Source: a virus. Taken from it: a stretch of 64,000 nt of DNA. Both the position numbers and the translations under genes were made by a program. The first letter of the stretch is position 1; every line of letters begins with the position of its first letter. The stretch is taken from positions 7,234 through 71,233 of IMG/VR virus record IMGVR_UViG_3300019458_000616. One strand, given 5' to 3'. The notes below the pieces were generated by a model. That model saw only the letters and a list, made by a program, of their open reading frames with translations. It had not been told where the DNA came from and did no database searches. Shown here piece by piece: positions 3,086 through 63,971 of this stretch.

Positions 3086-3101
3086 GTTAAGCCCCCTTAA
3101 C
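3086..3101. promoter_or_regulatory. Dispersed palindrome copy 1 GTTAAG-CCCC-CTTAAC
   Basis: Intergenic, about 78 bp after the ParB stop. Confidence 0.85.
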
Positions 3102-3188
3102 GGACCTCCCTCCGCTCGGAGCCTCCCGACCTTCGATCCGATCGCGCTCGCGTCGAGCACGGGGAGCCGGATCGAGCCGGCGATCCTC

Positions 3189-3362
3189 GTGACGGAGAAG
3201 CTCGAGCCCGTCCTGCTCTCTGTCCGCGTCGTGATCGTGGGGCCGAAGGGCGGGCAACTCCGCGTCGACCTCCCGCTCGATCGCCGGGCCTGCCGTGAGC
3301 TCGCGGCCGTCCTCGGAGTCGCGATCCCGCTCCTTGACGCCTCGGCGCTCCTCCGTGGCTGA
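3189..3362 (+). CDS. Small hypothetical protein
   Basis: Short ORF with typical codon usage; start uncertain. Confidence 0.4.
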   Translation: MTEKLEPVLLSVRVVIVGPKGGQLRVDLPLDRRACRELAAVLGVAIPLLDASALLRG

Positions 3363-3894
3363 CCGAGGCCGATCCCCTCCGGCCGCCCTCCACCTCCTTC
3401 GCGTCCTCCGCCGGCTCGCCCGGCGTGTCCGGCTCCCCGATGACCCGCTCGCCCGAGGCCTCGAGGGCCTCTGGCGGACGCAGGCGCGCGTCGTCCGCGC
3501 CCGCGAGCTCGTCCTCCGGCTCCTTGGCCGGCTCGTTCTCGCCCAGGTCCGGACCGAGGGCCGCGTTTCGACGCTCAAGCGCGCCCGGAGGGCCCGGGCC
3601 GAGCTCCTCTTCTCGAGCGCCCCGGATGACCCGGAGCTCGGCACCCTCTCGCCCGCGCGTCAGAAGGCCCGGATCGCCGTCCGGCTCCGAGCGGACGACG
3701 AGCGCCTCGGCGAGGCCGAGGAGCTGGCCCGGGCCGCGAAGGCGCTCGCCCGTTACGCGGAGAGCGTCCTCGAGCACGCCACGGCGGCGAAGGAGGTTCT
3801 TCGCCAGCAGGTCGACCTGATCCGCGAGGAGCGCGCCCGGGGGACGATTCGCTTCTCGCGGCTCGACGGGAAGGCTCATCGCGGAGACGCATGA
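3355..3894 (+). CDS. Hypothetical helical protein
   Basis: GTG start overlapping the previous stop; helical composition. Confidence 0.5.
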   Translation: MADRGRSPPAALHLLRVLRRLARRVRLPDDPLARGLEGLWRTQARVVRARELVLRLLGRLVLAQVRTEGRVSTLKRARRARAELLFSSAPDDPELGTLSPARQKARIAVRLRADDERLGEAEELARAAKALARYAESVLEHATAAKEVLRQQVDLIREERARGTIRFSRLDGKAHRGDA

Positions 3895-3929
3895 GGCGCC
3901 TCCCGGCAGACGGAAGACGGAGACGCGAG

Positions 3930-5081
3930 ATGGCCGACAAGGTCAAGGCCGCCAAGGGCGGCAAGGACGGACGATCGGACGAGGATCGGACGAAGGCGCG
4001 GATCAAGGAGAAGACCGACGAGAACGCCCGGAAGAACGCGATCGACAAGGAGGCCGAGGCGCTCGAGGAACTCGCGGCCGCGGGGGCGGACGGCGGCGAC
4101 GAGCCGGAGGAGCGGGAGGATCGGATCGCGCGCGAGGCGTCGGGCCCGAGGGACGAGGAGCCGGAGGAGGACGGCGACGAGCCGGACGGCGAGGAGGAGC
4201 CGGACGACGTCGACGAGGAGGAGGACGGCGACGACCAGGACGCGGACGATGACGGCGAGGAGGTCGAGAAGCCGCGCGCCAAGCCGGTGGGGAAGAAGGA
4301 CGGGAACGGCAAGAAGGCGGCCGCCCAGGCCTGGGACGAGGTCGGCTGGGAAGACGAGTCGATCCAGTCCGGGGGGAAGTTCCTCCCGAAGTACCGCGGC
4401 AAGCGGGGCCGGCGGGATGTCATCCACGTCATGCCCGTTCCGGGGATCAAGCTCCCCGTCCGGGTCGGGACGCACTGGGACAACAAGCGCAAGGCCTACC
4501 ACAACTGCTCGCGTCTCCCGACCTGCCCCGCGTGCAAGAAGCTCGGCGAGGACACCGCGTCCGACCGCTACGCGGTCCCGATCGTCCACATCCGGAGCGC
4601 CATCAAGAAGGACGTCGAGCCGGTCGGGAAGGTCATGATCTGGATCTTCGGCAAGGACAAATACGAGCAGATGCGCGACGTCGTCCTTCCCGAGGCCCGC
4701 GAGCTCGGCAAGGACATCACGGGTGTCGACATCGTCGTCAACTGCCTCGACTCGCAGATGCAGCGCCTGACGCTCTCCGTCTCGCAGCGGTTCGAGCTCA
4801 AGAAGAGCCACGTCGCCGCGTGGAAGGAGGACGGGATCGAGCGGTTCAAGGCCTGGCTTTCCGAGGAGTTCACGGACGAGGCGATCGCGAAGAGCCTCGT
4901 CCGGGAGCGGAGGTCGACGGAGTTCGATCCCGACAAGTTCGACGAGGACGACGGGGACGACCGCGTCATGCTCGACCGGCCCGGGCGGCGGAACCGGCGC
5001 CGGCGCGACGACGATCGCGAGGACGAGGACGACGTCGGTGCCGAGCTCGAGGACCTTGTCGGCGACGGCGAGGACCTCTGA
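3930..5081 (+). CDS. Probable gp32-like single-stranded DNA-binding protein with acidic extensions
   Basis: H..C....CPAC zinc motif, KVMIWIFGKDKY, GVDIVV; acidic termini; lies upstream of recA. Confidence 0.6.
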   Translation: MADKVKAAKGGKDGRSDEDRTKARIKEKTDENARKNAIDKEAEALEELAAAGADGGDEPEEREDRIAREASGPRDEEPEEDGDEPDGEEEPDDVDEEEDGDDQDADDDGEEVEKPRAKPVGKKDGNGKKAAAQAWDEVGWEDESIQSGGKFLPKYRGKRGRRDVIHVMPVPGIKLPVRVGTHWDNKRKAYHNCSRLPTCPACKKLGEDTASDRYAVPIVHIRSAIKKDVEPVGKVMIWIFGKDKYEQMRDVVLPEARELGKDITGVDIVVNCLDSQMQRLTLSVSQRFELKKSHVAAWKEDGIERFKAWLSEEFTDEAIAKSLVRERRSTEFDPDKFDEDDGDDRVMLDRPGRRNRRRRDDDREDEDDVGAELEDLVGDGEDL

Positions 5082-5083
5082 TC

Positions 5084-5296
5084 GTGCGTGTGCCTCGATA
5101 TCTGCTTCGCAGGCGATGGGTCGAGGCTCACGAGACGCGGACGCGGAACGCTCGGCGACGATTTCGACGAAAGACGCCTTGGAAGACGGTCGACAAGTTC
5201 GAGTCGGCCGAGGTCGCCATCGCGGCGATCCCGCCGGTGGCCGGCCTCTACGAGTACGGCGTCTTCCACCGCGGGCGCCGCGTCGTGTGGCCGTGA
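5084..5296 (+). CDS. Small hypothetical protein
   Basis: Short ORF coupled to its neighbours. Confidence 0.4.
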   Translation: MRVPRYLLRRRWVEAHETRTRNARRRFRRKTPWKTVDKFESAEVAIAAIPPVAGLYEYGVFHRGRRVVWP

Positions 5297-5673
5297 GGGC
5301 TCGCGTCCGCGTCCGAGGTCCGAGGACCCCCTTCGAGAAGGGGCGGTGGGACCTCCTCTTCGAGAGGGAGGTCCTCGGGCCGCGGCGACGCCACGGCGAG
5401 ATCCTCCGCTACCGCTACGGCGGGATCCGTCTCCTGATCACGGTCTGCGACGTCGACGGGAAGCGGAGCCCGACTTTCTACACGCCGGACTGGTTCGTCC
5501 TCTTTCCCGACGGGGCTGTGGAGCTCTGGGAGGTCAAGGGGTTCTGGCATCGCGACGCTCGACTGAAGGTCAAGCTCGCGGCGGAGGCCTGGCCCGAGTT
5601 TCGGTTCGTCGCCTGGACGCGCCAGACGAAGAAGGAGGGCGGGGGATGGCGGTCGGAGGTCTTCGGGCCGTGA
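5293..5673 (+). CDS. PD-(D/E)XK phage endonuclease (DUF1064-like)
   Basis: FYTPDWFV....VELWEVKGFW..DARLKVKLAA. Confidence 0.72.
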   Translation: MRARVRVRGPRTPFEKGRWDLLFEREVLGPRRRHGEILRYRYGGIRLLITVCDVDGKRSPTFYTPDWFVLFPDGAVELWEVKGFWHRDARLKVKLAAEAWPEFRFVAWTRQTKKEGGGWRSEVFGP

Positions 5674-5936
5674 AAGCGCATGACGTTCGACGGCTGAGGC
5701 CGTGCGCCATCTGCGGGCATCTCGGCCTTCCCGAGGCGTCCGAAGAGGGTCTCGTCGATCTCCTCCGGGCCGGCGAATGTCTCGTCCATGCTCGATGCCT
5801 CTTCCGCGCGGAGGGTGCGTCGGCGCTCTTCGCCCTGCCGGCCGAGGAGCGAGGCAAGGTCCGGGTCAACGACGTGCCGCGAGGCGTGTTCGTCGAACTC
5901 GCCGCCAGGGCGGATCGAGAAGGATACCGTGGCTAA
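5670..5936 (+). CDS. Hypothetical Cys/His-containing protein
   Basis: GTGA overlap; CAICGH and CLVHARC. Confidence 0.5.
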   Translation: MKAHDVRRLRPCAICGHLGLPEASEEGLVDLLRAGECLVHARCLFRAEGASALFALPAEERGKVRVNDVPRGVFVELAARADREGYRG

Positions 5937-6957
5937 GGCCGCGACCGAGGCGGCGGTCCTCGCCGAGCTCGCGAAGGGCCTTCCCTCGCTCCTCGTCCGG
6001 ACCGAGGTCGAGCGCTGGCCGCTCGGCCTCCTCGCGCTCGACCGCGCGCTCGGCGGCGGACTCCCCGCCGGTCGGATCGTCGAGGGTCACGGACCGAACG
6101 ACTCCGGGAAGACGACGCTCGCGCTCGAGGTTGCCCGCGACGTCCTCGACTTCCACCGCGGGAAGCGGAAGATCCTCTACCAGGACCACGAGGTCGCCCT
6201 CGACATCGCCTACGGCGAGCGGATCCTCCGTCGGCCGATCGGCGTCGTTGACCGGCTCAAGGACCTCCCCGCCATGTGGCGCGCCCACGAGGTCCTCCTC
6301 TTTCGCCCGAGATCGTTCGAGGCCGACGACCTCGTGACGCGGAAGCTCGTCGGGACCGGGAAGGTCGCGATGGTGGTCCACGACTCGATCCCGTCCATGG
6401 TGCCCGAGCTCGAGGACGAGGACGACGGGCTCTCGCCGCCGCCGGCGCTCGTCGCCCGCGCTCTGGGGACATGGCTCCCGCGCTATCGCCGGCTCCTCTC
6501 CGCGCGGCGATGCGTCGCCTGGCTCGTGAACCACGCGAAGAAGCAGTCGATCGGCTACCGGGGGAAGGAGCAGTTCCGGCCGTGGGTCCCCTCCGGCGGC
6601 GAGAACCCGCGCTTCTGGTCGGACGTCCGCCTCTTGATCGTCGGGTCGCGGAGTCCGGTCTATCCCGAGCGCGGCCGCCTCGTCCGCGTCCGCGTGATCA
6701 AGAACAAGACCGCATCCGAGCGCCGCGCCGAGGTTCCCTATCACGTCGACGGCCGCGACGGGATCGACCGCGCCCAGGAGGCGATCGAGCTCCTCGCCGA
6801 GGCCCGCAAGGGGCGATGGGTCGAGCGGAAGGAGGGAAGGCTCTTCGAGGCGGAGGGCCTTAAAGCTCCGCTCTCGGCGGTCGACCTCCGGCGGCTCCTC
6901 GACGGCGAGGAGGGTCGGGGCTGGCTCCGCGGGGTCCTCGGGGTCAAGGAGGCCTGA
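5929..6957 (+). CDS. recA: RecA/UvsX-like recombinase
   Basis: LDRALGGGLPAGRIVEGHGPNDSGKTTLAL, VVHDSIPSM, SGGENPRFWSDVRL, VRVIKNKTA. Confidence 0.92.
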   Translation: MAKAATEAAVLAELAKGLPSLLVRTEVERWPLGLLALDRALGGGLPAGRIVEGHGPNDSGKTTLALEVARDVLDFHRGKRKILYQDHEVALDIAYGERILRRPIGVVDRLKDLPAMWRAHEVLLFRPRSFEADDLVTRKLVGTGKVAMVVHDSIPSMVPELEDEDDGLSPPPALVARALGTWLPRYRRLLSARRCVAWLVNHAKKQSIGYRGKEQFRPWVPSGGENPRFWSDVRLLIVGSRSPVYPERGRLVRVRVIKNKTASERRAEVPYHVDGRDGIDRAQEAIELLAEARKGRWVERKEGRLFEAEGLKAPLSAVDLRRLLDGEEGRGWLRGVLGVKEA

Positions 6958-6958
6958 C

Positions 6959-7231
6959 GTGGTCTCTTTCGCGGGCGGCGGCGAGGAGCGGCTCGAGCTC
7001 CTCGAGACCTCGATCCGGTGGGAGCCGCGGCGGACGCCGGCGGCCGACGTCGCGGGTTGGTTCGGGCGCGTCGTGGAGCAGTTCCGCGGGGCGAAGGGTG
7101 ACCTCGAGACGCTCCAGGTCGAGCAGGTTCCGGTCGAGAAGGAGCCGGGCGTCTACCGGCTCGTCTTCCGCTGCAAGGGACTCCCGGGCGCGGACACGAG
7201 CCGCGCGGTCGAGTTCGGGTGGGGCGGATGA
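6959..7231 (+). CDS. Hypothetical protein
   Basis: Fills the gap in the operon. Confidence 0.5.
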   Translation: MVSFAGGGEERLELLETSIRWEPRRTPAADVAGWFGRVVEQFRGAKGDLETLQVEQVPVEKEPGVYRLVFRCKGLPGADTSRAVEFGWGG

Positions 7232-7422
7232 TCCAGGGGGGAATGGTCGGGATCGAGGGCCGGGAGGCGGACGGGCTCATGCTCGCGAAGAACGACCGCG
7301 GCCTCCGAGCCGCGAATCGCGAGCTCGACCGACGCGGAGTTCCCCGAGAGCATCGTCTGGCGCTTCTCCACGGCGAGGGGTTCGCGCTCTGGTACCTCCG
7401 ACCGAAGGAGGCGCGAGTGTGA
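7228..7422 (+). CDS. Small hypothetical protein
   Basis: ATGA/GTGA coupling on both sides. Confidence 0.45.
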   Translation: MIQGGMVGIEGREADGLMLAKNDRGLRAANRELDRRGVPREHRLALLHGEGFALWYLRPKEARV

Positions 7423-8693
7423 TTCAGCGCATCCGAGCCCGTGCCTATCGCTCGCTCCACTTCGTGGATCTCGACCTCTCGCCTCGCGTGACCGCGATCG
7501 TGGGGCCGAGCGATCAAGGGAAGTCGAACGTCGTCCGCGCGCTCCGGGACCTCTTCTTCGGCGCCCGCGGCGCCGGTCTCGTCGAGCGCGGCGAGAAGGC
7601 GGCCGAGGTCGAGGTCGAGCTCGACGACGGGCGCGCCGTCAACCTCCGCAAGGGCGGCAAGGTCAACGAGCTCATGGTCCTTTTTCCGGACGGACCGGTG
7701 TCCGCGACCCGAACCTTCTCGGGCCACGGGTCCGTGACGCCGAAGGAGGTCCAGGACGTCCTCGGCGTTCGCGAGGTCGAGGTCGACCGAGGCGTCTCGG
7801 TTCGGCCGAACCTCGTCGAGCAGCTCGACCGCTCCGAGCCGTTCCTTCTTCGCGAGCCGGGTTCCGTCGTGGCGCGCGTGATCGGCCTCCTCTCCGGCCT
7901 CCATGTCGTTCATGCGGCCGTACGGGAGGCGCAAGCGGACGCGCAGGCGCGCGACCGAGACGCCGCAGCGGCGGAGGAGGCGGAGCGATCGGCGATCGAA
8001 CGCGAGGGCCCGCAGCGGGAGAAGGTCGAGCGGTATCGCGGCGCTCGCGAGGAAGCGGCGTCGCTCCTCAAGGGCGCGCGGAAGGCCGAGGACGCGGCGA
8101 CGGACCTCTCCGTCGCGCGAGAACGGCTCTCCCGCCTCCTCGACCAGCTCGAGGACGCCGCCGACTCGGCGAGGAGGCTCGAGCCGTCGCGGGCGGCGCG
8201 AGAGCAGCTCGAGGTCTCGGTGAGGGGACGCGAGAGGGCCGCCTGGATCGGCGAGGATCTCGGCGGTCTCGATCGACTTCGCCTCCGCGTCGACGGGCTG
8301 CGGTCCCGACGCGACCGCCTCTCGCGCGTCGTACCCATCCCGACCGTCGTTTCCGAGGTCGATCGGGTCGCGTCTCGGGCTCGCGGCCTCGGCCAGGCTC
8401 TCCGGGGCCTCGATCATCTCATCGCGCTCGACGCCGCGGCGGGGGAGAAGCACCAGGCGTTGTCGGTGGCCCCCGCGCTTTGCGCGAACGCGGCCGCTGC
8501 CCGCGCATCGGGGGAGAAGGCGGACGCCCTGCGCGAGGCCGCTCGGCGGGAGCGGCTTCACGTTCGCGAGGTCGACGACGCCGTTGCGAGGAGGGACGCC
8601 GCGGAGCGCGAGCTCGAGGCGGCGCGGAGAGCGCTCCGAGCGGTTCCGGCATGTCCGCTCTGCGGGAGCCGGCTCGGGGAGGGCGCGCGATGA
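7419..8693 (+). CDS. SbcC/Rad50-like ATPase, N-terminal half
   Basis: Walker A IVGPSDQGKSNVVRAL, Q-loop region EQLD, coiled coil, ends in zinc-hook CPLCG; no Walker B. Confidence 0.85.
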   Translation: MIQRIRARAYRSLHFVDLDLSPRVTAIVGPSDQGKSNVVRALRDLFFGARGAGLVERGEKAAEVEVELDDGRAVNLRKGGKVNELMVLFPDGPVSATRTFSGHGSVTPKEVQDVLGVREVEVDRGVSVRPNLVEQLDRSEPFLLREPGSVVARVIGLLSGLHVVHAAVREAQADAQARDRDAAAAEEAERSAIEREGPQREKVERYRGAREEAASLLKGARKAEDAATDLSVARERLSRLLDQLEDAADSARRLEPSRAAREQLEVSVRGRERAAWIGEDLGGLDRLRLRVDGLRSRRDRLSRVVPIPTVVSEVDRVASRARGLGQALRGLDHLIALDAAAGEKHQALSVAPALCANAAAARASGEKADALREAARRERLHVREVDDAVARRDAAERELEAARRALRAVPACPLCGSRLGEGAR

Positions 8694-9211
8694 GCGTCGT
8701 TCGCCTTCTCGTGATGGGTGTCGATGCTCGCCTCTGCCTCTTGATGATCGTAGCGATGCTCGTCCGGTTCTGGTCGAAGGTCCAAGCCGGTCCGAATTGC
8801 TGGATCTGGATGGCCTCGCTCGACGCTCGGGGTTACGGGCAGATCAGCAAGGGGAGTAGCGGGGCGGGGACGGCAAAGGCGCATCGAGTCTCGTTCGCGC
8901 TCGCGAACGGATGGCTGGAACCGGAGGCGCATGTTCTCCATCGCTGCGACAATCCGCGGTGCGTTCGTCCCGATCATCTCTTTCTTGGATCGCATGCGGC
9001 CAACATGTTGGACGCTCGCGTGAAGGGGCGCATGCGGCACGGCGTTCGTCACCCGTTCGCGAAGCTATCGCCCGAGAAGATCCGGATTGCCCGAGAAATG
9101 CGCGCATCGGGGAGGACATACCAAGAGATCGCGGACCACTTCGGGGTCAACAATTCGACGCTGTACGAGGCGGTGGAGGGTGTGTCGTGGCGATCGTGCG
9201 CCTCCTCGTAA
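8690..9211 (+). CDS. HNH homing endonuclease with C-terminal HTH
   Basis: RFWSKV..CWIW..GYG..AHRVSF..VLHRCDNPRCVRPDHLFLG..ANM. Confidence 0.88.
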   Translation: MSVVRLLVMGVDARLCLLMIVAMLVRFWSKVQAGPNCWIWMASLDARGYGQISKGSSGAGTAKAHRVSFALANGWLEPEAHVLHRCDNPRCVRPDHLFLGSHAANMLDARVKGRMRHGVRHPFAKLSPEKIRIAREMRASGRTYQEIADHFGVNNSTLYEAVEGVSWRSCASS

Positions 9212-10137
9212 CAGGAGATCTCCACTACACGCGCCAGCCGCCAAGGGCTCGCCGCCAGACCTACGCGGAGTGCCTCCGGGAGAAGCTCGCCTACCTGCGG
9301 CGCGCGGCCGAGAAGGTCGGCGCGGTAGCGGTCTGCACCGGCGACATCTTCCACCGGAAGCACCCCGAGGAGGCGGACATCTCGGACCTGATCCGCGAGC
9401 TCCGCGGGTTCCCTGGCGGCTTCGTCTACTCGGTCCTCGGGAACCACGACACGGACTCGCCGGGTCGCATGGAGGGGACCGCCTACGAGTGCCTCGTCGA
9501 AGCGGGCGTCGTTCGGGACCTCTCGGAGACGGTCGTCCGGCTCGATGGCATGAGCCTCTCGGGCGCGCCGTACATGCCCGAGGGCCGGGCGCGCGAGCTT
9601 TACGCTGGCGTCTGCGCGGACGTCGAGGTCGAGATCCGCGTCACCCACGGCATGCTCGTTCCGGAACAGCGGGAGTACCCGTTCGCGGCGACGCATCCGT
9701 CGGAGATCCCGGGTCGCCGGCCGCGGCTTCTCCTCAACGGCCACAACCACGACCCGTTCGAGATCGACGACGTCGTCAACGTGGGCTCGGTCTGTCGGAT
9801 CTCGCGGCTCGAGGCCGAGAAGCCGCGTCGCTTCCTCTTCGTCCGGGTCGAGGACGGAGAGGTCTCCTGGAAGTCGCTTCCGCTCCCCTGTCGACCTGTC
9901 GAGGAAGCCTTTCGGGACGAGGAGGACCCTCTCGAGGGGTTTGAGGAGGGAGTCGAGCGGGACGAGGCCCGGCGGGAGATCGAGGGGGTCGCGCGCGAGC
10001 TCGCCGGCGACGTCGACCTCCTCTCCATGGAGCCGGAGGAGCTCCTCCGAAGGATGCAGGTGGGGAAGGTGAGCACGCCCGCGGTCGAGGAGGCCTTCCG
10101 CTACCTCGCGCAGGCCCGGGCGGTGGTGGGAGGTTGA
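9187..10137 (+). CDS. SbcD/Mre11-like metallophosphoesterase
   Basis: TGDLH, TGDIFH, VLGNHD, VTHG, NGHNH, NVGS motifs. Confidence 0.88.
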   Translation: MAIVRLLVTGDLHYTRQPPRARRQTYAECLREKLAYLRRAAEKVGAVAVCTGDIFHRKHPEEADISDLIRELRGFPGGFVYSVLGNHDTDSPGRMEGTAYECLVEAGVVRDLSETVVRLDGMSLSGAPYMPEGRARELYAGVCADVEVEIRVTHGMLVPEQREYPFAATHPSEIPGRRPRLLLNGHNHDPFEIDDVVNVGSVCRISRLEAEKPRRFLFVRVEDGEVSWKSLPLPCRPVEEAFRDEEDPLEGFEEGVERDEARREIEGVARELAGDVDLLSMEPEELLRRMQVGKVSTPAVEEAFRYLAQARAVVGG

Positions 10138-10139
10138 CA

Positions 10140-11043: not shown

Positions 11044-11878
11044 GCTTGTCGACCGGCTTCGGCGGCTCGAGCGTGCCGAAGTCGCCGAGGAGGCCGAGCT
11101 CCGGCGGATCGTCCGAGAGCGCGCCGAGGCCCGAGAGCGCGCGGAGGACGCTCGGATCGCCGCCCGCCTCGCCGCCGACGCGAAGGCCGTCCTCCTCGGC
11201 CTCGCGGCGGCGAAGCAGGCCGAGGTCGGCGCCCGCGTCGAGGGACTCGTCACGCGCGCCCTCCGCGCGGTGTTCCGGCGGCGTGACTACCGCTTCCGCT
11301 TCCTCTGGGAGGAGAAGCGCGGGGTCGCCGCGGCGACGCCCCTCCTCACGACGGTTCACGGCGGCGAGGAGGTGGAGACGGAGCTCGTTGACGGGCATGG
11401 CGGCGGGGTCGTCGACGTCGTCGCCTTCGTCCTCAGGTTCGTCGTCGCCCGCCATTCCCGTCCGCCCCTCGCGCGGCTCATCGTAGCCGACGAGCCGTTC
11501 CGGCATGTCGCGGCCGAGCACGCCGACGGGCTCGGCGAGCTCCTTGCCTCTCTCGCCGGCCAGGGCTGGCAGTTCCTCATCGTGACCCACCAGCGGGCCC
11601 TTGCCGAGCGCGCGGACCGTGCCTACCGCGTCCGGCTCGGGGAGGACGGGCGCTCGATCGTCGAGCGCGTCGGGACGGAGGAGTCGGCGCCGGGCGAGGC
11701 GTCGGGGGAGGGCGACATGGTCGTGAGGTGTCTCGAATGCGGGGCCGAGGGGGCGAAGTCTCCGGGCCCGTTCGGAGGACTCTCCCTCTGTGCGGAGTGC
11801 AAGGCGAAGCGGGAAGCCGGGAAGGCTCCGGAGAAGAAGGTCCCGAAGCGGAAGCGGGTTGTCGAGGATGGGCGTTAA
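11021..11878 (+). CDS. SbcC/Rad50-like ATPase, C-terminal half, with Zn-ribbon tail
   Basis: Signature-like GHGGG, Walker B LIVADEPF, H-loop IVTHQ; CLEC..CAEC tail; SD AGGAGG. Confidence 0.85.
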   Translation: MPASSTPELVDRLRRLERAEVAEEAELRRIVRERAEARERAEDARIAARLAADAKAVLLGLAAAKQAEVGARVEGLVTRALRAVFRRRDYRFRFLWEEKRGVAAATPLLTTVHGGEEVETELVDGHGGGVVDVVAFVLRFVVARHSRPPLARLIVADEPFRHVAAEHADGLGELLASLAGQGWQFLIVTHQRALAERADRAYRVRLGEDGRSIVERVGTEESAPGEASGEGDMVVRCLECGAEGAKSPGPFGGLSLCAECKAKREAGKAPEKKVPKRKRVVEDGR

Positions 11879-11889
11879 GGGCACTTAAC
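11874..11889. promoter_or_regulatory. Palindrome copy 2 GTTAAG-GGCA-CTTAAC
   Basis: Contains the SbcC-C stop; immediately upstream of the QueC-like gene. Confidence 0.85.
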
Positions 11890-11891
11890 CA

Positions 11892-13321: not shown

Positions 13322-13377
13322 ACGAGAAGCCATTCTCCTATCCGCCCCGGAAGAGGCCCCACGCCGGCAAGGCCGAG

Positions 13378-13899: not shown

Positions 13900-14672
13900 T
13901 CGCCCGCCCCGAGCTCGTCGACTTCGTCGCGTTCGCGAGCGCGATCCTCAAGGACGAGTCCCGGCGCCCGCTTCGGCTCGCCGCGCCGCACCTCTCGTGG
14001 ATCCTCCACATCGGCTACTGCTGGGAGCGCGAGCTCGGGGCCCTCATCAATGCGCCGATGGGTCACGGCAAGACGACGCTCTTCTCCGTCGGGTTCCCGC
14101 TCTACCTCCTCGGCCAGGACACGAATCGTCGGATCAAGCTCATCTCGGCAACGGACCCGCTCGCCGCCGACCGCGTCGCTGGCGTCCGGGACTACATCGA
14201 CGGCGATGCGGACTTCCGGACCGCGTGCTCGCATGTTCGACCGTCGATGCTCGACCGCGTCCAGGCGCGGCGGGGCTGGGCTCGCCACAAGCTCCATCTC
14301 CACCGGACGGGCCGGTCGATCGAGGCCTCGCTCGAGGCGCGCGGGATCCTCTCGACCGGCGTAGGGGGGCGCTGCGAGTACGTGGGCTTCGACGACCCCG
14401 TCGACGAGCGCAACGCGGCGAGCGAGGTCATGCGGAAGCGGGTCATCGACGCCTTCGACAAGCTCTGGATGACGCGCCTCGAGCCGTGGGGCCGCTGGTG
14501 GATGATCTCGACGCCCTGGCACCAGGACGACCTGAACCACCATCTCCGGCGGAAGCCGACGGTCTGCACTCTGATCGAGCGGGTCTCCGACGACTACGCG
14601 CACCTCGACTTCGAGATCGTCAACGCGGTCGACGACCGGCATCCGCTCATGCGGTGGCGGGCCGCGGCATGA
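13896..14672 (+). CDS. Terminase large subunit, ATPase domain only
   Basis: Walker A APMGHGKTT, Walker B YVGFDDP, motif III ISTPWHQDDL; stops at 258 aa. Confidence 0.85.
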   Translation: MIARPELVDFVAFASAILKDESRRPLRLAAPHLSWILHIGYCWERELGALINAPMGHGKTTLFSVGFPLYLLGQDTNRRIKLISATDPLAADRVAGVRDYIDGDADFRTACSHVRPSMLDRVQARRGWARHKLHLHRTGRSIEASLEARGILSTGVGGRCEYVGFDDPVDERNAASEVMRKRVIDAFDKLWMTRLEPWGRWWMISTPWHQDDLNHHLRRKPTVCTLIERVSDDYAHLDFEIVNAVDDRHPLMRWRAAA

Positions 14673-16180
14673 CCGAGGAGGGACGGATGACTCGGGCGAC
14701 CCGGAAGAGGCGTGGGATGGTCCCGCCGATGCCGCGCGAGGGGGACCCGGCGGCCGAGTGGGTGTCGCTCGCGACCATCCACCCGTGGGAGCGGAACCCC
14801 CGCGTCATCCCCGATCGGTTGATCGAGAAGCTCGCGGAGACGATCCGGAAGCTCGGGTGGGGGCCTCCGATCGTCGCCCGCGCGTCCGATCGGAGGATCG
14901 TCGCCGGCCACGCGCGGCGGCTCGCGGCCATGAAGCTCGGGCTCGAGCTCGTCCCGGTCCGCTTCGTCGACCTCGACGACGATCGGGCGGCGGCGATGGC
15001 GCTCGCCGACAACCGTCTCGGCGAGGAGGCGGCGTGGAGCGAGGACGACCTCGCGGCTGTCTTGCGGGGGATCGAGGATGAGCCCCTTCGACTCCTTGCG
15101 GGCTTCGAGGCCGACGAGCTCGACGACCTCCTCAACGAGGGGGGAGGTCCCGACGGGGCGAATGCTCCGAGCCTCGCCGAGCGCTTCCTCGTGCCCCCCT
15201 TCTCGGTGCTGGACGCGCGGCAGGGTTACTGGCAAGAGCGGAAGCGCGCCTGGATCGGGCTGGGGATCAAGTCGGAGCTCGGTCGCGCGTATGCGGTCCC
15301 GCCCGGCGGTAGTCCCCGTCCCGCCGCGAAGCTCGGGCGGGACGGGAAGACGGTTCGAGGCGATGGCTCGGGGCGTCCCCTCAATCTCAAGACCTGGAAC
15401 GGCGTGGGGCAGGAGGACCCGGTCTCGCAGAAGATCGAAGCGGCGGGCGTCTGCAGCGTCTTCGATCCGGTTCTCTGCGAGATCGTCTATCGATGGTTCG
15501 CGCCGCCGGCCGGACGCGTCCTCGATCCGCTCGCCGGCGGGAGCGTCCGCGGCCTCGTCGCTTCGCGGCTTGGCCGAGCCTACGTCGGAGTCGAGCTCCG
15601 CCCCGAGCAGGTTGCCGCGAATCGCGAGCAGGGAGAGAGGATCGCGCGTTCGGCGGACCCCGCCCCCGTCTGGATCGAGGGCGATGCTCGTGACGTAACC
15701 GTTCTGGCGGCCGAGCGCGCCCCCTTCGACCTCCTGTTCTCCTGTCCGCCCTACGCCGACCTCGAGCAGTACAGCGATGATCCCCGCGACCTCTCGGTCC
15801 TCGAGTATCCGGCCTTCCTCGCCGCGTATGGCGCGATCATCCGCGAGTCCGTCGCGCTCCTTGCCCCCGATCGCTTCGCGGTGTTCGTCGTCGGAGAGGT
15901 CCGGGAGCCCAAGGCCGGCGGCGCCTATCGCGGCTTCGTCCTCGACACGATCCGCGCCTTCGAGCAAGCCGGCGCGCGCTTCTACAACGAGGCCGTCCTC
16001 GTGACCATGTGCGGGTCGGTCTCCATCCGCGCGGGCCGGCAGTTCGCGACGTCGCGCAAGCTCGGGAAGACGCACCAGAATGTCCTCGTCTTCTGTAAGG
16101 GAAGCCCGACGCGGGCGACGCGAGCCTGCGAGCCCGTGGTCGTCGGCGACCTCACCGAGGCCTTCCGAGACGCGGTCTGA
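14669..16180 (+). CDS. ParB-N domain / DNA methyltransferase fusion
   Basis: ERNPR..GWGPPIV..IVAGHARRLAA..LADNRLGE; VLDPLAGGSVRG, GVELR, FSCPPY. Confidence 0.86.
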   Translation: MTEEGRMTRATRKRRGMVPPMPREGDPAAEWVSLATIHPWERNPRVIPDRLIEKLAETIRKLGWGPPIVARASDRRIVAGHARRLAAMKLGLELVPVRFVDLDDDRAAAMALADNRLGEEAAWSEDDLAAVLRGIEDEPLRLLAGFEADELDDLLNEGGGPDGANAPSLAERFLVPPFSVLDARQGYWQERKRAWIGLGIKSELGRAYAVPPGGSPRPAAKLGRDGKTVRGDGSGRPLNLKTWNGVGQEDPVSQKIEAAGVCSVFDPVLCEIVYRWFAPPAGRVLDPLAGGSVRGLVASRLGRAYVGVELRPEQVAANREQGERIARSADPAPVWIEGDARDVTVLAAERAPFDLLFSCPPYADLEQYSDDPRDLSVLEYPAFLAAYGAIIRESVALLAPDRFAVFVVGEVREPKAGGAYRGFVLDTIRAFEQAGARFYNEAVLVTMCGSVSIRAGRQFATSRKLGKTHQNVLVFCKGSPTRATRACEPVVVGDLTEAFRDAV

Positions 16181-16231
16181 AGCCATCCGCGGGGAAGCCT
16201 CCCGAAGGGAGGCGTCGATGCCTCCCGGCGA

Positions 16232-16247
16232 GTTAAGGGGACTTAAC
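16232..16247. promoter_or_regulatory. Palindrome copy 3 GTTAAG-GGGA-CTTAAC
   Basis: 12 bp before ATG 16260; preceded by hairpin GCCTCCC-GAA-GGGAGGC. Confidence 0.85.
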
Positions 16248-16259
16248 GTGCCGGAGAGC

Positions 16260-17380: not shown

Positions 17381-17399
17381 TCCCCGGAAGGCTCCGGAC

Positions 17400-18801: not shown

Positions 18802-19539
18802 ATGGCTCCCGTTCGTCCTCGACGTCGGGACCCCGGCGCCGCGTCGCCTCCGGCGCCGGTCGATCATGACGAGGCCGTCCTCTGGCGGCGCTATCGCGAA
18901 ACCCGATCGACCGAGGACCGAAACGCGATCGTGTGTCGCTACGTCCGATGTGCCGAGACCGACGCGTTCGTCTACGCGTTCAGGCAAAGGACGATCGCGA
19001 GGTGGGGGCTCCGGGACGAGGACCTCCGGACCTTCGCCTACGAGGCGCTCCTCGACGGCGTCGAGCGGTTCGAGAACGAGCCCCATCGCTTCCGGGCCTT
19101 CCTCGCTCAGCGCATTCGCTGGCGGATCGCCGACGGCCTCCGGCTTGGCGAGTCCGCGTGCCTCGCGTGCTCCTACCGGCGTCACGGACGCCGCCTCCCC
19201 GTCTACGGGAGCCTCGACCAGGTCGCGTTCGTCGACAACGAATCCGGGGATGCCGTCACCTACCTCGAGCTCCTCCCGGCAACCGAAGTCCTCCCTCGCG
19301 ACGACGGTGACGAGGGGTTCGAGGCGCTTCTTGCGCTCGTCGACCGGCCCGTCGATCGAACCATCCTCGACCTCTACTTCCGCCATGGTCTGACGATGCG
19401 GGCCATCGGCTTCGCGGTGGGCATCTCCGAGAGCCGGGTGAGCCAGCGCGTCTCCGCCGCGCTCTTCCGGCTGCGGGCGATCCTCGAGGCCCGGGAAGGC
19501 TCCGGTAGGTGCCTCTCGAGGGCCGTCCTCTCGGGTTAA
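18802..19539 (+). CDS. FliA/WhiG-like sigma-70 factor
   Basis: LWRRYRETRSTEDRNAIV..Y; LDLYFRHGLTMRAIGFAVGISESRVSQ; start uncertain. Confidence 0.82.
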   Translation: MAPVRPRRRDPGAASPPAPVDHDEAVLWRRYRETRSTEDRNAIVCRYVRCAETDAFVYAFRQRTIARWGLRDEDLRTFAYEALLDGVERFENEPHRFRAFLAQRIRWRIADGLRLGESACLACSYRRHGRRLPVYGSLDQVAFVDNESGDAVTYLELLPATEVLPRDDGDEGFEALLALVDRPVDRTILDLYFRHGLTMRAIGFAVGISESRVSQRVSAALFRLRAILEAREGSGRCLSRAVLSG

Positions 19540-19550
19540 GGCGCCTTAAC
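19535..19550. promoter_or_regulatory. Palindrome copy 4 GTTAAG-GCGC-CTTAAC
   Basis: Contains the sigma stop; 21 bp before the TTG start of the second ParB. Confidence 0.85.
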
Positions 19551-24567: not shown

Positions 24568-24583
24568 GTTAACCCTCCTTAAC
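24568..24583. promoter_or_regulatory. Palindrome copy 5 (variant) GTTAAC-CCTC-CTTAAC
   Basis: 27 bp upstream of the portal start. Confidence 0.8.
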
Positions 24584-32173: not shown

Positions 32174-32189
32174 GTTAAGGGGGCTTAAC
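32174..32189. promoter_or_regulatory. Palindrome copy 6 GTTAAG-GGGG-CTTAAC
   Basis: Abuts GTG 32190; preceded by 9-bp hairpin CCGACGAGG-TGCAA-CCTCGTCGG. Confidence 0.85.
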
Positions 32190-36722: not shown

Positions 36723-36738
36723 GTTAAGGGTCCTTAAC
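36723..36738. promoter_or_regulatory. Palindrome copy 7 GTTAAG-GGTC-CTTAAC
   Basis: 14 bp upstream of GTG 36753, next to the SD. Confidence 0.85.
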
Positions 36739-43962: not shown

Positions 43963-43978
43963 GTTAAGGCCCCTTAAC
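43963..43978. promoter_or_regulatory. Palindrome copy 8 GTTAAG-GCCC-CTTAAC
   Basis: Between the two minus-strand lipoprotein genes. Confidence 0.85.
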
Positions 43979-46759: not shown

Positions 46760-46775
46760 GTTAAGTTCCCTTAAC
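46760..46775. promoter_or_regulatory. Palindrome copy 9 GTTAAG-TTCC-CTTAAC
   Basis: 11 bp after the tape measure stop, intergenic. Confidence 0.85.
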
Positions 46776-54483: not shown

Positions 54484-54499
54484 GTTAAGGGAGCTTAAC
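54484..54499. promoter_or_regulatory. Palindrome copy 10 GTTAAG-GGAG-CTTAAC
   Basis: 12 bp before ATG 54512, abutting SD GAGGAG. Confidence 0.85.
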
Positions 54500-57213: not shown

Positions 57214-57215
57214 CG

Positions 57216-57231
57216 GTTAACCAACCTTAAC
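57216..57231. promoter_or_regulatory. Palindrome copy 11 (variant) GTTAAC-CAAC-CTTAAC
   Basis: 2 bp upstream of the minus-strand sigma ATG. Confidence 0.8.
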
Positions 57232-57614: not shown

Positions 57615-58209
57615 GACCCGCCTCCTCGGACTCGCGGTCTCGCGCCCGCCGCCTCGAGCTCTCGGGGAGGAGGAGCGGGACCTCTTCGCGCTCGTTCCTC
57701 GGGACCGCTTCGAGCAGTCGCCCCGCCACGTCGAGGACCTCTCGGACGCCGGCGAGCTCGCCGAGCACGACACGGCGCCGGAGCGCAACCCAAGGACGAT
57801 CGTCGTCGACGGTCGCGCGCCGCCCGAGCCGGCAGGCCGCCGCGAGCCACCAGCGATCGACGAGAAGAAGGAGGTCCTCCTCGGCGGTCTCGGAGTCCTC
57901 GGCGCGCGCCGCGACGGCGTCGAGCCGGCGAAGGAGCGAAGCGGGGGAGAGCCCGTCGCCCTCGCCGAGGAGGTCCTCGAGCCGGGCCTCCGCCTCGGTG
58001 ATGGAGACACCCCACGCGCGGGCAGCGAGTCGAACGGGGCCCCCGCCCTCGGCGCAGCGGTGGCAGAACCAGCGGCGATCGTCCCGGACGGACATCGCCG
58101 GCGCTTTCCCGGGAGGGCACCTCGGACAGGGGAGGCGGCCGTCCGGCCCGGCCTCGCCGAGATCGAGGAGCCGGATGACGTCGCGGAGCCGGAAGGTGGT
58201 ACCCCTCAC
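57607..58209 (-). CDS. Stand-alone primase-type zinc-binding domain (CHC2-like) protein
   Basis: CPRCPPGKAPAMSV..RWFCHRCAEGGGPV..WGVSITEAEARL. Confidence 0.7.
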   Translation of the reverse strand: MRGTTFRLRDVIRLLDLGEAGPDGRLPCPRCPPGKAPAMSVRDDRRWFCHRCAEGGGPVRLAARAWGVSITEAEARLEDLLGEGDGLSPASLLRRLDAVAARAEDSETAEEDLLLLVDRWWLAAACRLGRRATVDDDRPWVALRRRVVLGELAGVREVLDVAGRLLEAVPRNEREEVPLLLPESSRRRARDRESEEAGHE

Positions 58210-61012: not shown

Positions 61013-61605
61013 AGGGCCTCGAGGTCGAAGACCGCGACCTTCTTCGGGTTCCGGAGAAGGGCGGCGCCCCTGTCGCCGTAGAGGGCTCGGAGGTTGCCCG
61101 TCGCGGCGACGAGCGTCGAGCGTCCCTCGACGTCGCGGCGGTTGACGAGCTCGGAGAGTCGGGGCCCGTTGTAGGAGTGCCGGCCCTCCTCGCCGCAGAG
61201 GACGACGATGAAGGCGAGTCGCGAGAGCTGCGCCTCGAGCCGCGCCTTCTCCTCGCGGTTGAACGTGAGGTCGACGAGCTCCGAGAGCCGGACGAGGCGT
61301 CCATCCCGTCCGGTCCCGATCGCCGCTCGGAGGGCGGCGAGGGCTGCCTCGCCGACCGCCGGCATCTGGCCGTAGAGGACGGAATGGCCCGAGGCCTCGT
61401 ACGCGGTCCGGACGAAGCGGCCGAAACCGCGACCGAAGGCGGAGAGAGGGCGGACCTCGACATCGGCGACGCCTCCGCGCTCGAGAAGCGCGTCCCGGAC
61501 CGCTTCCGCGCGGCAGGCGCAGGGGCGCCAACGGCCGGTCGCGGCGTCCCGGACGTGCTTCCGGCCGCGGCAGACCGCACAGGGGGCTACGGCAGCTTGT
61601 CCCAT
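61009..61605 (-). CDS. DnaC/IstB-like helicase loader, degenerate ATPase
   Basis: CAVC..WRPCAC Zn motif; LSELVNRR..GRSTLV; Walker motifs not intact. Confidence 0.6.
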   Translation of the reverse strand: MGQAAVAPCAVCRGRKHVRDAATGRWRPCACRAEAVRDALLERGGVADVEVRPLSAFGRGFGRFVRTAYEASGHSVLYGQMPAVGEAALAALRAAIGTGRDGRLVRLSELVDLTFNREEKARLEAQLSRLAFIVVLCGEEGRHSYNGPRLSELVNRRDVEGRSTLVAATGNLRALYGDRGAALLRNPKKVAVFDLEAL

Positions 61606-63971
61606 GGGAATGGCCCTCCGATCGGGACGGGAACCTTCTCGCTCCAGGCGACCGACGCGATCGCGACCTCGACCTCGAGTGGGACCCGGAACGGGAAGTC
61701 GGTCATGGCCCGGACGAGGATCGGGATCGCCTCCTCAACGTCCTCGCGATGGACGTGGAGGAAGAGTTCGTCGTGGCTGCTCATCGCGAGGGTAGCTCTC
61801 AGGCCGGAGGCGGCGAGGTCGTCGTCCGCCCGGATCGTTGCGACCTTGAGGAGGTCCGCCCCCGTTCCCTGGACCATGTAGTTCAGGAGCGCGTAGGTCC
61901 GCTCTTCATGGTCGAGGTAGAGCTTCCGGCCGAAGGGGTTCCTGACGTAGCCGCGCGCGCGGAACTGGCGGGCGAGGTACTCCGCGTAGGCGCCGATCCC
62001 GGGGAAGCGTTCGTCGACGCGCTGGAGGATGAGGGCCGCCTCGACCGTCCCGCACGGCGGGCCGATCATGACCGAGGCTTGACGGGGCCCGGCGCCGTAC
62101 TCGACGGCGAGGAAGAGGTTCTTCGCCCGTTGGCGGAGGTCCGGATGAGCCTCCTTCCACGCCTTGTCGGGGAGCTCCAGGTCCACTGGCCAGGCCGTCT
62201 TCCCGATCTCGACGTAGAGGTCGCGATTCTCGGCGAAGATGGCCGCGAGGTTTCGGTCGCGCGTGAAGTGCGCCGTCAAGCGCGGCTCGACTTGGCGCCA
62301 GTCGACGAAGAGGAGGAGCCAGTTGGGCCCGGGCGGGACGATCGCGCGCCGGACGCTCCATGCCCGGGCGCGATCGACGAGCTCCTCGTCGACGGTGTCG
62401 TCGCGATCCGTCCCGTGGAGGTTCGGCTCCGACGTCGAGAAGCGCCCGGTCCGCGCCGACGTCTGGTTGAGGTGAGGGAAGAGGATGCCGCGCCTGCGCC
62501 GGAACCAATCGCGCGCGGCCGGGCTCGCGTCCTCTTCTTCCATGAGGAACACCCGACCGCTCTCGGGCGGGCCCTCCGACCGCCAGCGGCAGGGGATCGA
62601 GTACGCGACGAGCGCCTCGAAGACGTCCTTCCGGCGCTTGAGCCATCGGTGGTCGAAGATCGCCTCGACGAGGGCGTCCTTGTTCCGGAACGGCTCGAGG
62701 GCCTCGGCCGACGTCGAGTACGTCCCCCCCTCGCCGTCCTCGCTCGCGGCCTCGCTCTTCTCCGTGAGCGGGAGCGGCAGGCCGCGAAGGCGGAGGACCT
62801 CGGCGAGCTGCTTTGCCGAGTTCATGTTGAGATCGCGCTTGGCGATCTTCTCGGCCCGGACCTTGACGACCTCGAGCTCCTTCTCGGAGGCCGCGAGCCG
62901 CTCCTCGGCGTAGGCGAGATCGACGAACTTCGGCGTCGACTCCATGGCCATCGTTGTCCGCGCGAGGCGAAGCTCGCGCGCATATACGCGCCGGCATCCG
63001 GTGTCTTCGCGGAGCTTCCGGAGGAGTCGCTTGAGGAGCCCTCGGCAGAGACGAGCGTCGAAGACGCAGTAGCGCGCCGCGAGTCGGATCGGAGCCCAGG
63101 CGAGCGATTCTTTCTGGTCCTGGACGCGACGGACGCCCTGCTTCTCGAACCACGCCCGGAGCTCGGCCTCGTCCTTGTTCCGGCCGAGGACGCGCTCGGC
63201 GAGCCAGTCGAGACCGAGTCGCCCATGAGCTTCCCTGAGGTGGAGGGAGAGCGCGTAGGCCGCGAGCATGCTGTCGTTGAGGCCGGGGGCGAGGAACGGG
63301 GTATCAACGAGCCCGAGGCGTTTCCACGCCTCGAGGAGAGCGCGCCAGTCGAAGGCGATGTTGTGGGCGCCTTTCGTCGCCGGCGACGCTCGGAAGAGGT
63401 CGAGGAGCGCGGCGAGGAGCTCGCGCTCGGGGAGGTTGCCGACGTAGGGGGGCGTCGCCCGCTGCTCCCCGAGCGTCCGTCGGCGCGGCTTCGGCGCGGG
63501 CGGCTTCCGCTCGCGCTTGCGGGCGGCGCCGGAGAGGACGAACGGCTCGTCGGCGGGGGGCGGAGGGGGCGGCGGCTCTTCTTTCGGCGGGAGGAGCGGG
63601 TCGCGATGCCGGAGCGGGAAGTAGACGTCGAGAGTCCTCGAGCTGATCGAGAGGCCGACGATCGAGGCGACCTCGAGTCGCGTCGACGACGTCTCGACGT
63701 CGAAGGCGAACCCGGCGCCGGAGTCCCGAATGCGGGCGACCAGGTCGAGGAAGTCGTCGGGTTTGGCGATCCGGAAATCGTCGGCGGCGGCGTTAAGGGG
63801 ACTTAACGTCCCGGGGATTAGAACGGTGCCGTCGGCTCGTCCGGGTGAAGGACGAGGTCCTCCATGCTCGCGCTCGACGGCGGCTTCCGGCACCGGGAGA
63901 CGGCCTCCCTCAGGGACATTCGGCGTAGTTCCTCGAGCCGCGCGGAGGCGGCTCGGGCCCTCCTCATCCAT
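61587..63971 (-). CDS. polA: Family A DNA polymerase with 3-5 exonuclease
   Basis: FDVETS, HNIAFDW, DSMLAAY; motif A FVDWRQVEPR, B RAKNLFLAVEYG, C SSHDEL; start uncertain. Confidence 0.92.
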   Translation of the reverse strand: MDEEGPSRLRAARGTTPNVPEGGRLPVPEAAVEREHGGPRPSPGRADGTVLIPGTLSPLNAAADDFRIAKPDDFLDLVARIRDSGAGFAFDVETSSTRLEVASIVGLSISSRTLDVYFPLRHRDPLLPPKEEPPPPPPPADEPFVLSGAARKRERKPPAPKPRRRTLGEQRATPPYVGNLPERELLAALLDLFRASPATKGAHNIAFDWRALLEAWKRLGLVDTPFLAPGLNDSMLAAYALSLHLREAHGRLGLDWLAERVLGRNKDEAELRAWFEKQGVRRVQDQKESLAWAPIRLAARYCVFDARLCRGLLKRLLRKLREDTGCRRVYARELRLARTTMAMESTPKFVDLAYAEERLAASEKELEVVKVRAEKIAKRDLNMNSAKQLAEVLRLRGLPLPLTEKSEAASEDGEGGTYSTSAEALEPFRNKDALVEAIFDHRWLKRRKDVFEALVAYSIPCRWRSEGPPESGRVFLMEEEDASPAARDWFRRRRGILFPHLNQTSARTGRFSTSEPNLHGTDRDDTVDEELVDRARAWSVRRAIVPPGPNWLLLFVDWRQVEPRLTAHFTRDRNLAAIFAENRDLYVEIGKTAWPVDLELPDKAWKEAHPDLRQRAKNLFLAVEYGAGPRQASVMIGPPCGTVEAALILQRVDERFPGIGAYAEYLARQFRARGYVRNPFGRKLYLDHEERTYALLNYMVQGTGADLLKVATIRADDDLAASGLRATLAMSSHDELFLHVHREDVEEAIPILVRAMTDFPFRVPLEVEVAIASVAWSEKVPVPIGGPFPWDKLP
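63792..63807. promoter_or_regulatory. Palindrome copy 12 GTTAAG-GGGA-CTTAAC
   Basis: At the 5-prime end of polA, 10 bp after the TAA of an upstream ORF. Confidence 0.85.

Follow-up and report, generated by a model that had tools for sequence, protein, structure and literature searches.

The window analysed here is a 64,000-nucleotide (nt) stretch of phage DNA, bases 7234-71233 (G000:C1) of the 74,414-bp IMG/VR provirus record IMGVR_UViG_3300019458_000616, and it carries a dispersed 16-bp palindrome, GTTAAG-N4-CTTAAC, at the boundaries of its genes and transcription units. We put at roughly 55% the probability that a sequence-specific protein encoded by the phage binds these palindromes at the DNA level, as a symmetric dimer, and represses or blocks gene blocks. 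At the level of sequence, a network of dimeric-protein sites is supported by the invariance of the arms, the free spacers, the placement at boundaries and, above all, the co-variation of the sites across five phages; from these we infer both the binding of a protein and its effect, repression or a roadblock to transcription. The source run of the window is a cave-metagenome DNA set, kept as assembled contigs.

A scan of the window allowing one mismatch returned 10 perfect and 2 one-mismatch copies, exactly the 12 that an earlier, sequence-only reading of this DNA had listed. The mean chance expectation over 100 dinucleotide shuffles is 0.01 matches, a larger figure than the value well below 0.001 which that reading had estimated. 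Just beyond the window, at genome position 73222 of the record (window-equivalent 65989), there is a 13th copy, also perfect. Scans at up to 3 mismatches yielded nothing more than chance, and the copies are therefore either near-perfect or absent. Both variants (24568 and 57216) share one change, G6->C, at the innermost arm position. The sequence-only reading had also remarked that only about three TTAA words occur elsewhere in the window, and 24 of the 27 TTAA words are indeed inside the motif; this scarcity is nevertheless not special, as 4-mers composed solely of A and T are all rare here, at 2-15 per 69 kb, and we rejected TTAA depletion as a signal for that reason.

Within the copies, the arms are invariant and the spacers are free. 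Two further features had been described correctly from the letters alone: the first spacer base is G in one orientation, which holds for 13 of 13 copies (p ~8e-4), and the arms do not extend consistently, the flanking pair being complementary in 4 of 13 copies, or chance level. G7/C10 is found in 16 of 26 half-sites (p = 0.005) and on both sides in only 3 sites, so the G7 preference is not an extension of the stem. No conserved flanking sequence exists around the 13 window sites or the 28 sites of a relative, rel5 (described below), and hence there is no shared promoter. The orientation of the spacer is independent of the direction of transcription.

To place the copies relative to genes, we used a crude gene map derived from periodicity in the GC content of third codon positions (GC3) and made blind to the motif, with families scanned in Pfam and PHROGs. 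Eight of the 13 motif centres fall in non-coding DNA, which constitutes 8.9% of the phage (p = 3e-6), and 6 of the 13 copies are situated 0-27 nt before a predicted start codon (5.7% expected, p = 4e-5). For three more copies (19535, 54484 and 65989), a well-placed alternative start that has a Shine-Dalgarno sequence follows or overlaps the motif. Other positional claims of the sequence-only reading were confirmed: one copy follows the ParB gene g010 and another precedes the ParB gene g037, and others follow stops at unit boundaries, the TAA stop of the upstream gene lying inside the motif at 11874, 19535 and 43963. The sites are found with genes of both directions of transcription, at a distance from the start codon that ranges from 0 to ~190 nt, and a strong GC hairpin directly precedes about half of the window copies (~6 of 13). 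Two sites, 43963 in the window and 38706 in rel5, are located between converging gene ends, where only a symmetric, start-independent role fits.

The strongest evidence comes from related phages. Among 5.8 billion proteins, four relatives were found at 39-48% portal identity, all of them Logan contigs; rel5 (L005/L171) was examined along its whole 51,968-bp contig, and L006, L229, L007 and L230 are partial. The window motif is absent from all four relatives, each of which bears its own dispersed palindrome (Table 1), with lengths of 15-17 bp across the five phages; the window and L007 words share TTAAG-N4-CTTAA. The rel5 contig is syntenic with the window phage over early, structural and replication genes, and of its 28 sites, 20 are within -15 to +100 nt of a called start, where 13% would be expected. 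The gap before the head gene (the g055 homologue) holds the local palindrome in five of five phages. In the window phage and in rel5 alike, the phage's own palindrome also stands before portal, PolA and SNF2; in rel5 it is 76 nt before the portal gene and overlaps the PolA start. In L006, the asymmetric centre occurs 3 times in each orientation. The sequence-only reading had looked to relatives for conserved positions, and the positions are kept even though the word changes. Each phage has its own word, and the palindrome system is common to the lineage. All sites of a genome have changed in concert, which implies a co-evolving trans-acting reader; the site sequence and a trans-acting factor thus appear to co-evolve.

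The word itself is private to this phage in the databases searched. An exact scan of 2.9 million IMG/VR contigs for GTTAAGGGNNCTTAAC matched 53 contigs, each with a single chance match, and multiple copies of the searched form occur solely in the record from which the window comes. The portal protein alone as a query in IMG/VR gave no relative, and portal alignment there gave relatives at no more than 35% identity. The repeated hairpins of those distant relatives are mostly GTAG-flanked and resemble repetitive extragenic palindromic (REP) elements, in one case host-wide, and were rejected as members of the same system. An alignment search with g007 in metagenome and viral contigs returned no match.

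Table 1. Copies of the palindrome, candidate regulatory genes of the window phage, and the palindromes of the five phages. Positions are those of the window unless marked as genome positions.
Feature	Position	Strand	Sequence or family evidence	Context
Copy 1	3086..3101		GTTAAGCCCCCTTAAC, perfect	78 nt past stop of g010; strong GC hairpins directly upstream (5th percentile)
Copy 2	11874..11889		GTTAAGGGCACTTAAC, perfect	Left arm holds TAA stop of g024; QueC-like ATG 2 nt downstream
Copy 3	16232..16247		GTTAAGGGGACTTAAC, perfect	g030 GTG at 0 nt gap, then DnaG core gene g031; upstream GC hairpin (2nd percentile)
Copy 4	19535..19550		GTTAAGGCGCCTTAAC, perfect	Holds TAA stop of sigma-like g036; downstream GAGGAGG, then TTG start (19572) of ParB-type g037 at 21 nt
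Copy 5	24568..24583		GTTAACCCTCCTTAAC, G6->C	Portal TTG start (Pfam Phage_portal_2) 27 nt downstream; stem extended by 5 flanking base pairs
Copy 6	32174..32189		GTTAAGGGGGCTTAAC, perfect	g054 GTG at 0 nt gap, then head gene g055; perfect 10-bp GC hairpin abuts upstream
Copy 7	36723..36738		GTTAAGGGTCCTTAAC, perfect	g060 GTG 14 nt downstream, GGGAGGAAG in between; start of head-tail/tail block
Copy 8	43963..43978		GTTAAGGCCCCTTAAC, perfect	Right arm holds TAA stop of g070; stop of leftward lipoprotein-like gene (43985-44470) 6 nt further; converging gene ends
Copy 9	46760..46775		GTTAAGTTCCCTTAAC, perfect	11 nt past stop of 785-aa tail gene g071; upstream GC hairpin (1st percentile)
Copy 10	54484..54499		GTTAAGGGAGCTTAAC, perfect	Followed by GAGGAG and ATG (54512) 12 nt downstream; blind gene call placed this start at 54401 instead
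Copy 11	57216..57231		GTTAACCAACCTTAAC, G6->C	2 nt before ATG of leftward sigma-like g083
Copy 12	63792..63807		GTTAAGGGGACTTAAC, perfect	In 5' region of leftward PolA gene; 49 nt before the PolA portion aligning with rel5 PolA
Copy 13	genome 73222 (window-equivalent 65989)		perfect	g090 GTG start inside motif
g009, sigma-like	650-1357
g010, ParB/Noc-type, 517 aa	1455..3008	+	Pfam ParB_N and HTH_ParB	Candidate binder
g026, sigma-like	12614-13321
g029, ParB_N fused to N6/N4 DNA methylase	14654..16180	+
g036, sigma-70-family	18802..19539	+	Pfam Sigma70_r4 5.5e-9, Sigma70_r2	Stop inside copy 4
g037, ParB-type, 532 aa	19572..21170	+	Pfam ParB_N 2.5e-11	Candidate binder
g083, sigma-like	56518-57213	-
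g090, 64 aa	genome 73227-73421		HTH_23 7e-8, HTH_7 5e-7	Just outside window
Window palindrome			GTTAAG-N4-CTTAAC	13 copies
rel5 palindrome			TGTTTCCT-N-AGGAAACA, as (T)GTTTCCT-N-AGGAAAC(A)	20 perfect and 8 variant, 28 sites
L006 palindrome (with L229, same sample)			(TC)GATTAAAC-N-GTTTAATC(GA)	7 in L006
L229 palindrome			L006-type	2 degenerate copies and a truncated end copy
L007 palindrome			CTTAAG-N4-CTTAAG	3 in 5.3 kb
L230 palindrome			AATTGTTT-N-AAACAATT	3 in 7.9 kb

In the mechanism that we propose, a dimeric protein would occupy the sites at unit starts and at some converging gene ends of the prophage. The bound protein would then repress or block transcription of the early, replication, structural and lysis blocks together, and the arrangement would amount to an operator or stoperator network, as with KorB-OB of RK2 or gp71 of L5. 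Several observations weigh against such an operator network. Four sites abut a start codon and give it its sole Shine-Dalgarno-like sequence (AAGG), which a role at the RNA level would also explain. No integrase was seen in rel5, so a purely lysogeny-silencing role does not fit all members. As to a KorB identity of the binder, the match of g037 to the Pfam KorB domain, at 18.6 bits, is under the 22.3 cut-off. Finally, neither the 52-kb rel5 contig nor the partial relatives yielded a ParB with a recognisable helix-turn-helix (HTH), an absence that counts for little because the rel5 contig ends in low-complexity coding repeats and an open reading frame (ORF) at its end resembles the g010 N-terminus.

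If the motif instead worked in RNA, it would form a short mRNA hairpin immediately ahead of or including the ribosome-binding site, processed by a sequence-specific endoribonuclease or targeted by a translational regulator, and would punctuate polycistronic transcripts. This would suit the usual order of stop codon, motif, Shine-Dalgarno and start, the AAGG located within the motif and 0-2 nt from the start in those four window sites, and the sense-strand centre of the rel5 sites, which is A ten times and T twice and gives UAAGGA; the GC hairpins before ~6 of 13 window sites could also stabilise an upstream 3' end, and copy 5, its inner pair lost, gains 5 outer pairs. We nevertheless regard an RNA-level role as unlikely. 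In a transcriptome of 70% GC the core stem, at ~-4 to -5 kcal/mol, is weak, and an unconstrained loop on a stem of invariant sequence is the opposite of most RNA-protein sites. The 7+1+7 form of rel5 cannot fold fully, the variants are uncompensated (C.C at 6/11 in both window variants; C.A, A.G and C.U in rel5), the orientation of the spacer or centre is unlinked to transcription, and Rfam 15 gave 0 matches at gathering score over the whole window. It is very improbable that the motif is a promoter or a core element of one, recognised by any of the four sigma-family proteins of the phage: a perfect palindrome would fire both ways, a second element at fixed spacing is absent, a start codon 0-2 nt on or an adjoining Shine-Dalgarno leaves no room for a start site, and two sites lie between converging gene ends. 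In favour of a promoter are the four sigma-like genes (a sigma gene is also present in rel5 and L006) and the sites at unit starts, often just past terminator-like hairpins, in a genome where no other conserved promoter was seen and where a search of window positions 1-20000 found no sigma-70-type promoter. Nor does the motif resemble an intrinsic terminator, as its stem is A/T-rich and has no T tract, and a terminator scan of 1-20000 matched none of the four copies there. Taken together, the invariant arms, the free spacers and the lack of an orientation rule, of arm extension and of a conserved flanking promoter make a dimeric DNA-binding protein a better explanation than an RNA hairpin or a promoter.

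Two further alternatives concern the origin of the repeats. The motif could be a host element, that is, a host-factor site or REP-like repeat common to prophage and host chromosome. There is a precedent in a distant portal relative, the Planctomycetaceae metagenome-assembled genome (MAG) G001, in which the hairpin CACTGCTGG-N5-CCAGCAGTG is host-wide, with 53 copies in 6.1 Mb and 8 of them within ~30 kb around the prophage locus, and the rel5 arms resemble chromosomal parS. However, the 5.4-kb host flank of the record holds 0 copies of the motif, more than one copy is found only in the window's own record among the 2.9 million IMG/VR contigs, and the copies are tightly linked to phage gene starts. 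The motif is also far shorter than REP-like elements and has no GTAG flank, whereas RAYT-associated REP elements are GTAG-flanked imperfect hairpins present in hundreds of copies host-wide. We accordingly hold out little prospect for a host element. The other alternative, in which the copies are recombination or inversion sites (for example 16232 with 57216) or module-exchange joints, we find barely credible. The copies do bound functional modules, and, relative to rel5, ~8 kb with two motif-bounded blocks is inserted between the halves of the terminase. Against this, the phage has a single integrase, at the prophage end, and a perfect 16-bp palindrome lacks the orientation by which inversion would be favoured over deletion. 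Comparison also lends no support to the 16232-57216 inversion that the sequence-only reading had raised as an alternative, as rel5 retains its primase zinc-ribbon homologue in the same leftward replication block and the split primase arrangement is therefore stable.

If the sites are operators for a dimeric protein, the binder has to be sought among the phage proteins, and the best candidates from sequence are the two ParB/Noc-type HTH proteins, g010 and g037, one of which is tentatively proposed as the binder. In both, the N domain and all or most of the HTH region can be aligned to Spo0J/Noc: g010, whose N-terminus is Lys-rich, matches Noc, residues 27-220 of Spo0J and, weakly, KorB 8qa8, and g037 aligns to Spo0J 6sdk residues 4-185. 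A third ParB_N protein, g029, is the only one with a ParB part, its N domain, that has a homologue in rel5 (33% identity). A 220-aa ParB_N protein of rel5 matches ParB/Noc/KorB folds over ~135-143 residues only (AlphaFold2 (AF2) predicted local distance difference test score (pLDDT) 86; Foldseek E 4e-6), and the ORF at the very end of rel5 begins MGAATKTKKK, resembling the g010 N-terminus MATKTKKP. The motif resembles parS in length and in its all-or-none conservation, and the rel5 consensus TGTTTCCT-N-AGGAAACA shares the outer 6 bp of each arm (TGTTTC/GAAACA) with parS TGTTTCACGTGAAACA; no canonical parS, Noc-binding site (NBS) or KorB operator (OB) was found in the window genome or rel5. ParA had no match among the ~60 proteins scanned, with about a third of the small ORFs outside the scan, and no second dispersed palindrome that might serve a second ParB was found in the window genome. 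Of the KorB/parS-like network put forward by the sequence-only reading, a genome-wide set of dimeric-protein sites is supported, but ParB or KorB as its binder is plausible only. A more specific version is speculative: a ParA-less ParB/Noc-type CTP clamp would load at 13 parS-like sites heading every unit and silence or insulate the prophage in the manner of KorB, and specificities diverging between sister phages would define immunity groups. The DUF932-like g007 was rejected as a binder, as it carries no DNA-binding signal.

A different binder at the same DNA-level sites would be the small HTH protein g090, which as an immunity-type repressor would regulate its own gene and silence the other blocks, in a model likened to the L5 stoperators or the phiC31 conserved inverted repeats. 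Its domain matches (Table 1) and position recommend it, as the GTG start within copy 13 has GGAGG 6 nt upstream and the gene, transcribed divergently to the SNF2 replication operon, immediately precedes the integrase, which is typical of a regulator; a 63-aa homologue precedes a sigma gene in rel5. A model of two g090 copies had an ipSAE of 0.32, with 0.00 for the best control (run agreement at least 37%, partner pLDDT at least 63). This value coincides with the mark, which was attained by 21 of 30 known homodimers but by 0 of 23 monomers, and the predicted interface leaves the putative recognition helix free. This model supports, but does not show, that g090 pairs as a dimer. On the other side, no homologue was seen in L006/L229, L007 or L230, all partial; alignment found none in IMG/VR viral contigs and, in a set of 5.8 billion proteins, nothing but g090 itself; in rel5 the homologue and the nearest site are 153 nt apart; and g090 may equally be an excisionase-like or AlpA-like factor, given its weak HTH_17 and AlpA matches. 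We consider g090 an improbable binder, ranked next after g010 and g037. Close to it and likewise outside the window, at G000:C1:73170-73210 (window-equivalent 65937-65977), is a second, different inverted repeat (GGACATGGGATA … TATCATGTCC) with an A/T-rich patch, which sits between the divergent SNF2 and g090 genes ~20 nt before copy 13 and could serve the switch region as operator or promoter.

Several known systems invite comparison. KorB of the IncP plasmid RK2 (structures 8qa8/8qa9) is a ParB-family HTH protein that acts on about a dozen perfectly conserved palindromes over ~60 kb, many of them at promoters. The window phage similarly has 13 near-identical palindromes dispersed over 69 kb and encodes ParB-type HTH proteins. 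It differs in being an integrated prophage, in its 6-N4-6 site in place of the 13-bp KorB site TTTAGCSGCTAAA and in having sites that hug start codons; moreover, no IncC/ParA or KorA partner was identified among the phage proteins scanned, and the KorB Pfam match is sub-threshold. The stoperators of mycobacteriophage L5 (Cluster A), bound by gp71, are asymmetric 13-mers aligned with transcription and bound by a monomer; tens of near-identical sites in stop-start gaps silence transcription, and site and repressor specificities diverge between relatives. The palindromes share with them the many copies in short intergenic gaps of a temperate phage. They depart from stoperators in being symmetric, without the asymmetry and orientation rule of those sites, and we know of no gp71 homologue in this phage. 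The parS sites of ParB and the NBS of Noc are near-perfect palindromes of 14-16 bp bound by HTH dimers of the ParB fold, and Noc, active at dozens of dispersed sites, works with no ParA. In rel5 the arms (TGTTTC/GAAACA) are identical to the outer parS arms, but sequence and centre spacing differ, and parS and NBS are not at gene starts. The start-associated sequences (SAS) of Cluster K mycobacteriophages are short, asymmetric repeats always linked to starts. As in SAS, the motif stands a few bases before start codons and in some copies includes the ribosome-binding site; unlike SAS, it is palindromic, lies at a variable distance from the start and in some copies occurs at converging gene ends.

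Cluster O mycobacteriophages such as Corndog carry more than 30 copies of a 17-bp dyad repeat, TGTTCGGNNNCCGAACA. Its arms are invariant and its spacer is free; it follows no orientation rule, has many intergenic copies and is not associated with promoters, and a dimeric binder was predicted for it (PMC4351075). These phages encode a ParB-like domain protein but no parAB partitioning system, and neither a binder nor a function was assigned to the repeat (PMC4351075). The window motif matches this description in its invariant inverted arms, free spacer and lack of an orientation rule or promoter association, and in a phage that encodes a ParB-like domain protein and in which scans of ~60 proteins found no ParA. 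Its copies are fewer (13) and much more tightly tied to gene starts and unit boundaries, and, in contrast to the near-identical Cluster O genomes, the diverged relatives here reveal turnover of the sites with their positions kept. Of published descriptions, that of the Cluster O repeat comes closest, and RK2 KorB-OB and the L5 stoperators are the best functional analogues. The window motif belongs among the dispersed operator-like dyad repeats of mobile-element genomes, and in no single named family.

As dispersed phage dyad repeats are already described in Corndog, what is new here is the comparison of five phages, in which positions are kept while the word changes. The lineage amounts to a natural experiment, through which the binder can be sought more narrowly, among proteins in which the residues that read DNA co-vary with the word. 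Should the binder prove to be of the ParB/Noc type, global transcriptional control by the ParB family would extend from plasmids (KorB) to integrated prophages, and the presence of ParB genes without ParA in many phages would be explained.

The genomic setting of the sites is as follows. Bases 1-5358 of the record are host-like, with a class II tRNA synthetase and an S-adenosylmethionine (AdoMet) decarboxylase, and the remainder, ~69 kb in a genome of ~70% GC, is a temperate siphovirus-like phage with an integrase at its right end (genome 73572-74414). An early/structural arm reads rightward (DUF932-like gene, recombination genes, QueC-like gene, DnaG core, portal, MuF, capsid, tail), and a replication block reads leftward (sigma, zinc-ribbon gene, methylase, DnaB, PolA, SNF2). 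For the AspRS-like gene of the host flank, identity does not exceed 41% across 301 Planctomycetota genomes and is 35-38% in three other MAGs, and megablast of 20 kb of the window against the GenBank phage collection gave no match. The large terminase is in two genes 8 kb apart, an ATPase part (13896-14672) and a nuclease part (22712-23524), which match phrog_38 positions 271-466 and 488-628, respectively. The rel5 terminase is likewise split, but its halves are just ~0.9 kb apart; the nuclease half is directly before the portal gene in L006, L007 and L230.

Some observations concern the relatives. The Logan contigs break exactly at palindromes (both ends of L006, the end of L229 and the start of L230), and one end of L006 is an inverted copy of the other; these breaks are an assembly effect of the repeat, and the genomes of the relatives are fragmented there. 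Between portal and MuF, rel5 (10163-15271) has two large genes, of 786 and 914 aa, that match no family and lack a counterpart in the window phage. Among the more distant portal relatives, the hairpin of G001 (the genome of L098; e.g. C1:2641256-2670494) is 23 bp long and its copies in the prophage area have the loop GCGAG or GCTAG, against GCAAG in chromosomal copies, and the loci L109, L029, L167, L138 and L108, several of which are in Planctomycetota MAGs, have REP-type hairpins flanked by GTAG/CCTAC, often as inverted pairs.

Other observations concern the genes of the window phage. Besides three ParB_N proteins, this 69-kb phage encodes four sigma-70-family genes, compared with at least 2 in rel5 and at least 1 in L006; no promoter classes could be derived for the sigma-like genes. 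The QueC-like gene (11892-12617; Pfam QueC 2e-25) stands alone, with no other 7-deazaguanine pathway gene among the proteins scanned. The DnaG catalytic core (DNAG_N and Toprim; 16421-17380) lacks a zinc finger, and the rel5 homologue of a distant gene, g084 (57607-58209, - strand), bears a CHC2 zinc ribbon; from these domains, the primase appears to be split between the DnaG core and g084. Beside copy 8, inside the rightward tail operon, a leftward ORF of 161 aa (43985-44470, - strand) with a lipoprotein-type signal (…LLAVGC…) is probably a moron.

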